From the IMG/VR virus record IMGVR_UViG_2711768018_000010: 6,450 bases of DNA; one strand, 5' to 3'. This document shows, one piece after another, positions 5,075 to 6,450 of the stretch (position 1 is its first letter; every line of letters begins with the position of its first letter). The position numbers and the translations under genes are program-made. Source of the DNA: a virus. Its lineage: Duplodnaviria; Heunggongvirae; Uroviricota; Caudoviricetes. The notes below the pieces were generated by a model. That model did not search any database and was not told where the DNA came from. It saw only the letters and a program-made list of their open reading frames with translations.

Positions 5075-5106
5075 AAAATAAAAACAAAAACCCGCCGAAG
5101 CGGGTT
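5075..5106 (-). terminator. Rho-independent terminator of the hok transcript
   Basis: Minus-strand RNA CCCGC-uucg-GCGGG (5-bp GC stem, UUCG tetraloop) is followed by UUUUUGUUUUUAUUUUC. Confidence 0.75.
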
Positions 5107-5174: not shown

Positions 5175-5330
5175 TTACTCCTCAGGTTCGTAAGCTGTGA
5201 AGACAGCGACCTCCGTCTGGCCGGTTCGAATTCGTACCTCGCAGAGGTCTTTCCTCGTTACCAGTGCCGTCACTATGACGGTTAAACAGATGACGATCAG
5301 GGCGATTAACATCGCCTTTTGCTGCTTCAT
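5175..5330 (-). CDS. hokD: Hok-family type I toxin (51 aa), HokD/RelF-like
   Basis: MKQQKAMLIALIVICLTVIVTALVTRKDLCEVRIRTGQTEVAVFTAYEPEE matches K-12 HokD (RelF) as I recall it and has the Hok single transmembrane helix. ATG at 5330 lies 9 nt after AAGGAG. Confidence 0.85.
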   Translation of the reverse strand: MKQQKAMLIALIVICLTVIVTALVTRKDLCEVRIRTGQTEVAVFTAYEPEE

Positions 5331-5387
5331 AGCCTGCTTCTCCTTGCCTTTCGGCACGTAAGAGGCTAACCTAGATTTGCCGTTCAT
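5175..5387 (-). CDS. mok-like in-frame upstream reading frame (70 codons) overlapping hok
   Basis: An in-frame ATG at 5387 (GAGG 8 nt upstream) extends Hok by 19 residues (MNGKSRLASYVPKGKEKQA). In hok/mok loci, as I recall the K-12 annotation, mok is an N-terminally extended frame sharing the hok stop (mokC 69 aa versus hokC 50 aa). Confidence 0.5.
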   Translation of the reverse strand: MNGKSRLASYVPKGKEKQAMKQQKAMLIALIVICLTVIVTALVTRKDLCEVRIRTGQTEVAVFTAYEPEE

Positions 5388-5621
5388 AGATTGAGCCTCA
5401 GATTAATGTTAAGCGTCTTGCCGGACGCGTAATGTTAACTGGGGCTTTTCTCTATCTGCCTTTTGGTGTTCATGCCTGAGACAGATAGCCTCAAGCACCC
5501 GCTGCAATTCTACTTAACTCTCCTTTTCCCGCAAACCGTTTTTATCCCCAGCGGCAAATCGAATACACCACCAGCGCCACCGCCATCGCAATTCCTACCG
5601 TTGTTAATGCTTCAGGCCAGG

Positions 5622-5966
5622 TCATCGTAAAATATCCTCCACGCTTATCAGTCCGTTCCGCTCCAGATAACTCATCGCCTTATCCGGTAATTTGCAGTCT
5701 GGCTTCGCTTTCCTCAGTTGCCAGGTTAACTGCTTTACCAGCATGGTTAACTCATCGACCAGACGCTGATATCCCACTGGTTTGTATTCATGCAATTTAC
5801 CGGCTGGCTCTGCTGCCAGCGATACCAGTGCGATTTCCAGAACAGCAATATCCATCTTATATGTGCGGATGATGTCATGGTCGATTGTGCCCGGTATGCA
5901 CAGTCTCTGTGCTTCAATAGTCTCCTCTGCGTGAGCTATTAACTGCTCTCTGGTAAAAGTCGTCAT
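5622..5966 (-). CDS. Hypothetical protein (114 aa), paralogous to the adjacent 55-aa ORF
   Basis: ATG at 5966 overlaps the stop of the upstream 55-aa ORF (ATGA). It shares MTTFTREQL and [10 protein letters not shown] with MTTITKERI and [10 protein letters not shown] of the 55-aa ORF. Confidence 0.65.
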
Positions 5967-6130
5967 GCCGTAGCCCCTTCTTGATATTTTTCAAACCAGA
6001 ACACAACCGGCTCTGCTTCCAGCGATGCCAGCGCAATCCGTGCCAGTTCCATTTGTTCACCACGGGTAAGCCCGTTTTCAAGCGGGTTTTTAATGAACAA
6101 TTCAATACGTTCTTTGGTAATAGTGGTCAT
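5963..6130 (-). CDS. Hypothetical small protein (55 aa), not in the supplied ORF track
   Basis: Hand translation of the minus strand from ATG 6130 gives [55 protein letters not shown], ending at TGA 5965-5963. A strong SD (TAAGGAG, 6-nt spacer) overlaps the stop of the upstream ORF, and its own stop overlaps the next ATG. Confidence 0.6.
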
Positions 6131-6140
6131 GTGTTACTCC

Positions 6141-6450
6141 TTAACCCGCAGTGCTTTCAACTGATGAGGGGAACAAAATCTTTTCATCAAACCCTGCATT
6201 CATATCATGAACAGCAACACACCAATCCATCGACGAACGATTATCAAGAGCCTCCATGATTTCATCCATGCGGCGTAGGTCATACAGGTAAATGCTTTTA
6301 TCGCCAATGGTGTAAAAGCCAATTTTTTTCGGTGATGGATGAGGTGTACTGGCAATAGCGGACACTACCATTTGTTCTTTTTTTAAGCAGCCATCTGATG
6401 ATATTTTTCCCTGAAGGCTGCCGGGGAGATATTCCCCAGACGAGAGTGAC
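6141..6450 (-). CDS. Hypothetical protein, probably 5'-partial (reading frame open to the right window edge)
   Basis: The ORF track starts it at ATG 6371 (76 aa), but that ATG has no SD and the same frame stays open with no stop up to position 6450. The C-terminus is ...FPSSVESTAG with TAA at 6143-6141 overlapping the SD of the 55-aa ORF. Confidence 0.5.
   Translation of the reverse strand, partial: SLSSGEYLPGSLQGKISSDGCLKKEQMVVSAIASTPHPSPKKIGFYTIGDKSIYLYDLRRMDEIMEALDNRSSMDWCVAVHDMNAGFDEKILFPSSVESTAG

Follow-up and report, generated by a model that had tools for sequence, protein, structure and literature searches.

EaA of Salmonella phage P22 (NP_059588.1, 317 amino acids (aa)) is a non-essential protein whose function is listed as 'unknown' (PMC4837284). 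For YfdT of Escherichia coli K-12 (b2363, 101 aa), encoded by the cryptic prophage CPS-53, a multicopy phenotype has been described: on a multicopy plasmid, yfdQ and yfdR together with either yfdS or yfdT block DnaA-dependent replication initiation, YfdR being the DnaA binder (PMC4776307). The Ea22 proteins of lambda and Stx phages are mosaics, in which a common N-terminal part is followed by swapped, unrelated C-terminal domains including DUF551 (PMC10834534); they are tetrameric, oligomeric and pro-lysogenic (PMC7093339, PMC10834534). Here we describe orf55 and orf114, two small genes, named for the lengths of their products, in a 6,450-nucleotide (nt) stretch of Caudoviricetes DNA (IMG/VR record IMGVR_UViG_2711768018_000010; the whole stretch is referred to as the window). 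The pair are ordinary, already catalogued 'ea-type' accessory genes of lambdoid prophages and not a new kind of system. We consider it very probable that they belong to the EaA/YfdT-type mosaic family and evolved as set out below, and quite probable that our explanation of the two genes as a whole is the right one. From their arrangement, they are predicted to be co-transcribed and translationally coupled early genes.

Both proteins share an N-terminal module (N-module) with EaA and YfdT. Residues 1–44 of EaA are 86% identical to orf55 (E = 8e-24) and include the same ARIALASL(D/E)AE signature, and eaA, too, belongs to a lambdoid early operon. In EaA, however, the module is followed by PF04447 and then DUF551, whereas orf55 ends 14 residues past the module, and orf114 differs from EaA in both its hairpin interior and its C-terminal module. 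The genomic settings also differ: eaA lies in the PL early-left 'ea' region by int/xis, whereas the window genes belong to a rightward operon, where they are flanked by the replication genes and hok/nin. YfdT has the same N-module (MTTFTNKELI...EIALVSLEVEP) and matches orf114 (E = 8e-6) and orf55 (E = 1e-3) over the module only. It is likewise a small prophage protein, and its gene adjoins the DUF551 gene yfdS; its C-terminal part, DEREAYELFMEKRFG, is by contrast another cassette, which in the relative P0064 is joined to the orf114 N-module and DUF551. The yfdQ and yfdR genes of CPS-53 are absent from the window.

Ea22 belongs to the same 'ea' genomic class and follows the same mosaic principle, and Ea22-family genes adjoin the orf114 cassette in Stx2a phage ArgO145 and in the locus L087. 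No Ead_Ea22 (PF13935) hit was found by hmmscan of orf55 and orf114 at E ≤ 1, and kinship with Ea22 was rejected when the family profile, aligned by hhalign to an Ea22-like neighbour protein, scored a probability of 0.1%. Near the Ead/Ea22 genes of L087, a small open reading frame (ORF) on the plus strand (730–1068) begins with MTITKQRVEKII and includes VYDLAVLALNLS, and is apparently a more divergent version of the N-module.

A predicted N-terminal hairpin module common to orf55 and orf114

A sequence-only reading of the window had placed two overlapping frames at the positions given in Table 1 and had noted stretches that they share, one at the N terminus (MTT) and one further in (IAL(A/V)SL(E/A)AEP), with a C-terminal extension on the longer protein. 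All of these observations hold. Both genes lie on the minus strand, and the TGA stop codon of orf55 and the ATG start codon of orf114 share an ATGA, giving an overlap of 4 nt. RefSeq annotates both genes, each as hypothetical; at 55 aa, orf55 is shorter than the 60 aa that the ORF lister required by default. The proteins start MTTITKERI (orf55) and MTTFTREQL (orf114), in agreement with the consensus of two family alignments, and the internal motif occupies residues 32–41 of orf55 and 45–54 of orf114. Pairwise BLASTP aligns the N-terminal 41 residues of the one with the N-terminal 54 of the other at 33% identity (E = 1e-5), and both proteins match the same positions of PHROG profiles 60, 660, 3323 and 5117. 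Using family alignments, AlphaFold2 predicts the same N-terminal two-helix hairpin in each, with predicted local distance difference test (pLDDT) scores of ~85–94. The predicted helices span residues 6–14 and 23–38 in orf55, the 14-residue tail of which is of low confidence, and residues 6–23, 30–51, 63–87, 95–103 and 109–113 in orf114, where residues 52–62 are disordered. At the DNA level, the internal motif appears as an 18-nt sequence, ATCGCTGG(A/C)AGCAGAGCC, of which the window holds exactly two copies (Table 1), with zero expected. The homology of the N-terminal parts of orf55 and orf114 is real, beyond chance; the C-terminal extension of orf114 corresponds to a second module, described below.

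The overlap could also be taken to mean that orf55 and orf114 are a single gene, either split by mutation or joined by programmed frameshifting, and fused proteins of 167/168 aa (P0001 and P0002) do occur in the protein collection. These fusions are rare, however (1–3 sequences, found in sequencing-run assemblies only), and come about via a 5-nt deletion or an earlier frameshift. The overlap contains no slippery heptamer, and each ORF has its own ATG and its own Shine–Dalgarno sequence: AAGGAG, 6 nt before the ATG of orf55, and GAAGGGG, 7 nt before that of orf114. The fused product would moreover hold two tandem N-modules, an architecture unseen in the 133 family representatives described below. 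Given the rarity of the indel fusions and the lack of a slippery site, we rejected a single gene, which we regard as extremely unlikely. The fused entries themselves may be sequencing errors or real variants, and in a MAFFT alignment headed by P0001 all homologues fell on the second copy of the module.

The sequence-only reading had proposed homology searches as a check and, not recognizing the family, had left its nature open. The searches did find a family (PHROGs, EaA and YfdT), yet not a well-characterised one. The best profile matches are to phrog_3323 (E = 1e-19) and phrog_60 (E = 4e-18) for orf55 and to phrog_660 (E = 8e-43) for orf114, and homologue searches returned 238 and 134 relatives, the similarity of which is block-wise. 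The N-module consists of a MTTxTKExL start, a variable 20–45 residues and then the near-invariant ARIAL(A/V)SLEAEP, making a hairpin of 40–55 residues. Both orf55 and orf114 show all of the features by which we define membership: an MTTxT(K/R)Ex(L/I) start, the closing motif 30–55 residues in, a profile match and a predicted hairpin.

After the motif, the homologues continue in more than 30 unrelated ways, including DUF551, dATP/dGTP pyrophosphohydrolase (formerly DUF550) and coiled coils. A further module, the C-module, ends many otherwise different proteins, and the N- and C-modules are each common to many proteins separately. The C-module is present in orf114 (Table 1) and absent from orf55; many other members also lack it, and it is therefore frequent but not obligatory. 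It recurs in gp45/45.1 of N15, sb31/32 of ST64B and the Stx1 phage H19J. A search with a profile combining the N- and C-modules against 1.84 billion representatives (clusters at 50% identity) gave 1,673 clusters at E ≤ 1e-3. Of the 133 new representatives, 94 have both modules, the N-module from residue 1 and the C-module right at the C terminus, separated by 1–263 residues; 36 have the C-module only and 3 the N-module only. Pfam domains found in these representatives are DUF551 (in 17), Ead_Ea22 (PF13935; in 2) and PF04447 (in 1). Judged from its sequence and predicted fold, orf114 is the minimal full architecture of the family, that is, an N-module, a short disordered linker and a C-module, and orf55 is the hairpin N-module plus a 14-residue tail.

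Scans of orf55, orf114, the 27-aa product of the downstream gene orf27 and the 87-aa protein encoded upstream found no match in Pfam, NCBIfam or PADLOC beyond chance-level matches of the 27-mer. A sequence search of the PDB gave chance matches only (NadD and MyBP-C; E > 0.1), and the best matches of the orf114 model in Foldseek searches of the PDB and BFVD were generic helical hairpins, at E = 0.28 or higher. In particular, neither orf55 nor orf114 has a Pfam hit to DUF551 (PF04448) or PF04447 (formerly DUF550), domains carried as cargo by relatives including P22 EaA, P0066 and P0064. Databases tag many N-module fragments 'DUF551/DUF550 domain-containing, partial', and because the module has no Pfam or NCBIfam model, thousands of module-only fragments are mislabelled in this way or as 'Eaa protein'. 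The main value of the present analysis thus lies in annotation, namely in a clean definition of this N-terminal hairpin module. The genera named among the relatives are Escherichia, Shigella, Salmonella and Enterobacter. A single-protein query of the GTDB genomes returned one match, to a mis-binned contig of a metagenome-assembled genome.

The closing motif is a recombination joint

We compared 80 IMG/VR loci with almost identical orf114, 79 of which were readable. orf55 or a point variant of it lies upstream of orf114 in ~60 of the 79. It is replaced in 19 loci (for example, L016, L019 and L031) by a gene for a 121-aa HNH endonuclease, the last 15 residues of which are encoded by the same DNA as the orf55 tail and which has the same ATGA overlap with orf114; in Stx2a phage ArgO145, too, this HNH gene (gp11, L089 4639–5004) precedes orf114. 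In three loci, another N-module interior carries the same motif and tail. From the tail shared with the HNH gene, it follows that the last ~55 nt before orf114 move with orf114, whatever the gene upstream. With another gene or another interior upstream of the shared DNA, the similarity of ~22 loci to the window begins at position 6021 or 6049, which falls within the codons of the motif or at their border. In the downstream direction, similarity often breaks off at 5541/5542, where orf27 has its stop codon. A further stop of similarity, at 6338/6339 in most loci, was considered as a mosaic joint and rejected, since it is the site of an IS600 insertion in the window.

The DNA of one variant places a crossover within the motif itself. 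P0031, a 101-aa protein found on 13 E. coli/Shigella contigs, consists of orf55 through IALASL joined to orf114 from AAEPAGK; its DNA is that of the window with 203 nt deleted by a crossover in the repeated motif, and its gene occupies the same position, between the 87-aa gene, from which 10 nt separate it, and hok. Across 16 different N-modules from the loci compared, the motif DNA (...CTGG(C/T)ATCGCTGGAAGCAGAG...) shows hardly any variation, third codon positions included, while the interiors are unrelated, and related loci hold one to three module-bearing ORFs within ~3 kb. These comparisons show that the motif (~20–30 nt) is an in-frame homologous-recombination joint at which the flanking cassettes are exchanged. 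Exchange at the motif both builds tandems such as orf55–orf114 and collapses them again, and the DNA that encodes the 14-residue tail of orf55 is part of the orf114 cassette.

This bears on the proposal that orf55 and orf114 are diverged duplicates. The homology of their N-terminal parts stands, but they are not simply local duplicates: the module of orf55 is 86% identical to that of P22 EaA and only 33% identical to that of orf114, and the module is the N terminus of a very large mosaic family. The identities argue for a tandem put together from two module lineages, which is better explained by cassette recombination than by duplication in situ. A recombination joint at the motif explains why dozens of small prophage genes of E. 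coli, Shigella and Salmonella, including those of Stx phages, resemble one another in a confusing, block-wise manner, and adds a further clear case of intragenic in-frame mosaicism in lambdoid accessory genes.

The window also contains ten Chi octamers (GCTGGTGG, both strands) in 6,450 bp, where 0.2 are expected from shuffled sequences. They lie at positions 1062, 1068, 1861, 1882, 2197, 3907, 3959, 4365, 4423 and 5568; the last of these (5568–5575) is inside orf27, just 3′ of orf114, and the stretch 1062–1075 is the palindrome CCACCAGCTGGTGG. The resulting density of 1.55 per kb compares with 0.6–0.8 per kb in related prophage loci and 0.14–0.27 per kb in stretches of K-12 CPS-53 and Qin, and P22 has none in 18 kb.

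Spread, coding status and proposed role

Exact copies of the orf55 and orf114 sequences are each found on at least 1,000 contigs. Among complete E. coli genomes, 409 of 5,426 hold at least 80% of nt 5541–6130 and 1,838 hold some piece of it. The cassette also occurs in isolated phages: vB_EcoS-689R5, PhiR49_2, the Stx2a phage ArgO145 and two other Stx2a phages. In ArgO145 and L087 it sits in the leftward PL 'ea' region, among Ead/Ea22 genes and close to xis and int, whereas in the window and in NZ_AP022105 it sits in the rightward operon, after the replication genes. Being found in both positions, it is a mobile accessory cassette of early operons.

All three frames of the cassette appear to be protein-coding. 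Among the haplotypes of the 80 loci, 9 of 17 changes are synonymous in orf55 (P = 0.007), 5 of 12 in orf114 (P = 0.11) and 6 of 14 in orf27 (P = 0.11), where a fraction of ~0.23 is expected; the excess is clear when the genes are pooled (P = 7e-4), and the annotated frame always scores above the other two. The smallest gene, orf27, starts at an ATG that overlaps the orf114 stop codon in a second ATGA, with GGAGGA 9 nt upstream. It is intact in 72 of the 79 loci and frameshifted in a few, and the segment also follows DUF551 genes in O157:H7 genomes. Annotation of orf27 is found on 15 contigs, in a few records as 'prophage protein', and RefSeq makes no call; P0011 is an orf114–orf27 fusion variant. 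An exact-sequence look-up that grouped the 27-mer with 185-aa DUF551 proteins was set aside as a clustering artefact, since those proteins do not contain the 27-mer.

A rival reading takes orf55 as a non-functional stump. Its hairpin would be what remains of an EaA-like gene after recombination at the EAEP motif brought in the orf114 cassette together with the 14 tail codons that precede it. Function would then be confined to orf114 and perhaps orf27, and the orf55 frame would stay open merely through in-frame recombination. The behaviour of the tail fits this reading, as it moves with orf114 behind the HNH endonuclease or three different N-module interiors, is of low confidence or disordered in the AlphaFold2 model and resembles the first strand of longer post-motif C-domains (for example, EPVVYMWDSERKD and EPVAWM). 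The frame itself behaves otherwise: the 55-aa frame, the conservation of which in related prophages had been left to check, is intact in ~60 of the 79 loci and on at least 1,000 contigs, is preceded by a strong Shine–Dalgarno sequence (AAGGAG), shows the synonymous excess given above and has no frameshifted or stop-containing copy among the loci, rare fusion variants excepted. In favour of a stump are also the many other short hairpin-only ORFs with assorted tails and the strains that have the fused 101-aa gene and no separate orf55. On balance, we regard a stump as possible but rather unlikely.

The sequence-only reading had further observed that the genes occupy the position of relBE in K-12 Qin, upstream of hok, and had considered a toxin–antitoxin-like module. 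Gene orders bear out the position: the window reads Q-rusA-DUF968 (DUF968/YdfU)-rem-like-hok-[orf27-orf114-orf55] and K-12 Qin reads Q(ydfT)-ydfU-rem-hokD-relE-relB, so that both carry two small, overlapping, co-directional genes in the equivalent slot upstream of hokD. In a toxin–antitoxin or abortive-infection pair, the acidic orf55 (isoelectric point (pI) 4.8) would neutralise either orf114 or the hydrophobic 27-aa membrane peptide encoded by the coupled gene downstream. There is, however, no homology to RelBE, and Pfam, NCBIfam and PADLOC give no match to toxin–antitoxin or defence families, nor does the PDB give a sequence or fold match to toxins or antitoxins. The partners here are paralogous, and orf114 is not basic (pI 5.9). 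The check for co-occurrence across prophages shows that the pairing is not obligate: orf114 is found without orf55 in the 19 loci with the HNH gene and in the viable Stx2a phage ArgO145. In addition, a deletion fuses the pair into the single 101-aa gene in some strains (13 contigs), and the N-module also forms the start of enzymes such as P22 EaA. A toxin–antitoxin-like pair is thus very unlikely.

We therefore return to orf55 and orf114 as members of the EaA/YfdT-type family. They would be non-essential proteins of the 'ea' class that modulate host or phage development. An isolated two-helix hairpin of 40 residues rarely folds alone, and for this reason the N-module may serve as an adaptor for self- or hetero-association that presents variable C-terminal parts, a role that we put forward tentatively. 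In other members, the N- and C-modules bracket inserts of up to ~260 residues. In a more elaborate version, which we consider improbable, the N-terminal hairpin and the C-module would be a dedicated scaffold for cassette exchange, with near-identical DNA handles in a Chi-rich region between which effector cargo is swapped, and orf55-like hairpins would regulate by co-assembly with their paralogues. In either case, orf55 (hairpin only) and orf114 (hairpin plus C-module) provide a defined minimal pair for probing the role of the EaA/YfdT module.

Several points weigh against our explanation of the two genes. No protein with the N-module has a demonstrated function, and the phenotype described for YfdT was obtained by overexpression, with YfdS able to take its place. 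As discussed, orf55 may be no more than an inert stump. With copies of orf55 and orf114 at ~98–100% identity, the test for selection has little power for orf114 by itself (P = 0.11). The sampled E. coli prophages may share a recent ancestor, which would account for their nearly identical motif DNA without a selected recombination site. Finally, the IS600 element just upstream may block or alter transcription of the cassette in this prophage.

Layout of the window

The window is a nin-like region of a lambdoid prophage of E. coli/Shigella type, with a Qin/Rac-like layout; Q in the gene order given above is the antiterminator. Features are listed in Table 1.

Table 1 Positions of orf55, orf114 and neighbouring features in the 6,450-nt window
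Feature	Position (nt)	Strand	Details
orf55	5963–6130 (read 6130 to 5963)	minus	55 aa; RefSeq WP_000207997.1; UniRef 'Eaa protein'
orf55 N-terminal hairpin module	6008–6130	minus	aa 1–41; EaA-type; the rest is a 14-aa tail
orf114	5622–5966 (read 5966 to 5622)	minus	114 aa; WP_000206826.1; UniRef 'Prophage protein'
orf114 N-terminal hairpin module	5805–5966	minus	aa 1–54; followed by a disordered linker
orf114 C-terminal three-helix module	5625–5768	minus	aa 67–114
Motif copy 1 (18 nt, ATCGCTGGAAGCAGAGCC)	6009–6026	minus	in orf55 codons; mosaic/recombination joint
Motif copy 2 (ATCGCTGGCAGCAGAGCC)	5806–5823	minus	in orf114 codons
orf27	5541–5625 (read 5625 to 5541)	minus	27 aa; one predicted membrane helix
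87-aa gene, 3′ part	6141–6339	minus	phrog_1714 (E = 5e-37); shortened in the window
IS600 (IS3-family) end	6340–6450		terminal 111 nt; sits inside the 87-aa gene
hok/mok coding region	5175–5387	minus	hokD annotation; context, neighbouring separately mobile module
sok/hok leader	5325–5500	minus	Rfam sok match; context
DNA methyltransferase	433–1767	minus	includes 250 masked bases (N) at 545–794

The two genes had also been described as chained stop-to-start with a partial ORF upstream. This does not hold: the ORF in question (76 aa, read from 6371 to 6141) ends 10 nt short of orf55 without overlapping it, and the spacer holds the orf55 Shine–Dalgarno sequence. It is the 3′ part of the 87-aa gene, cut at 6339/6340 by IS600, and its first residues are therefore derived from the insertion sequence; an intact 87-aa gene (phrog_1714) is present in NZ_AP022105. 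The element was identified through locus L045, where the transposase genes orfA/orfB (1428–2628) are annotated 'IS3-like element IS600 family transposase', and IS600 sequence occurs at 6,134 places in E. coli genomes. In this prophage, it lies between the orf55/orf114 cassette on one side and the replication genes and early promoter on the other.

A scan of the window found no promoter-like or convincing terminator-like site between these minus-strand genes. A terminator-like hairpin at 6023–6006 coincides with the motif and is at chance level (2 found versus 1.5 expected); the sole good terminator, at 5106–5089, follows hok.

Downstream of the methyltransferase gene, the minus strand carries two tRNA genes, one at 1–69, cut by the end of the window, and one at 86–159, as well as an Rfam match to the small RNA STnc100 (123.6 bits; 327–516). 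These features belong to the tRNA island that such prophages usually have between Q and the lysis genes.

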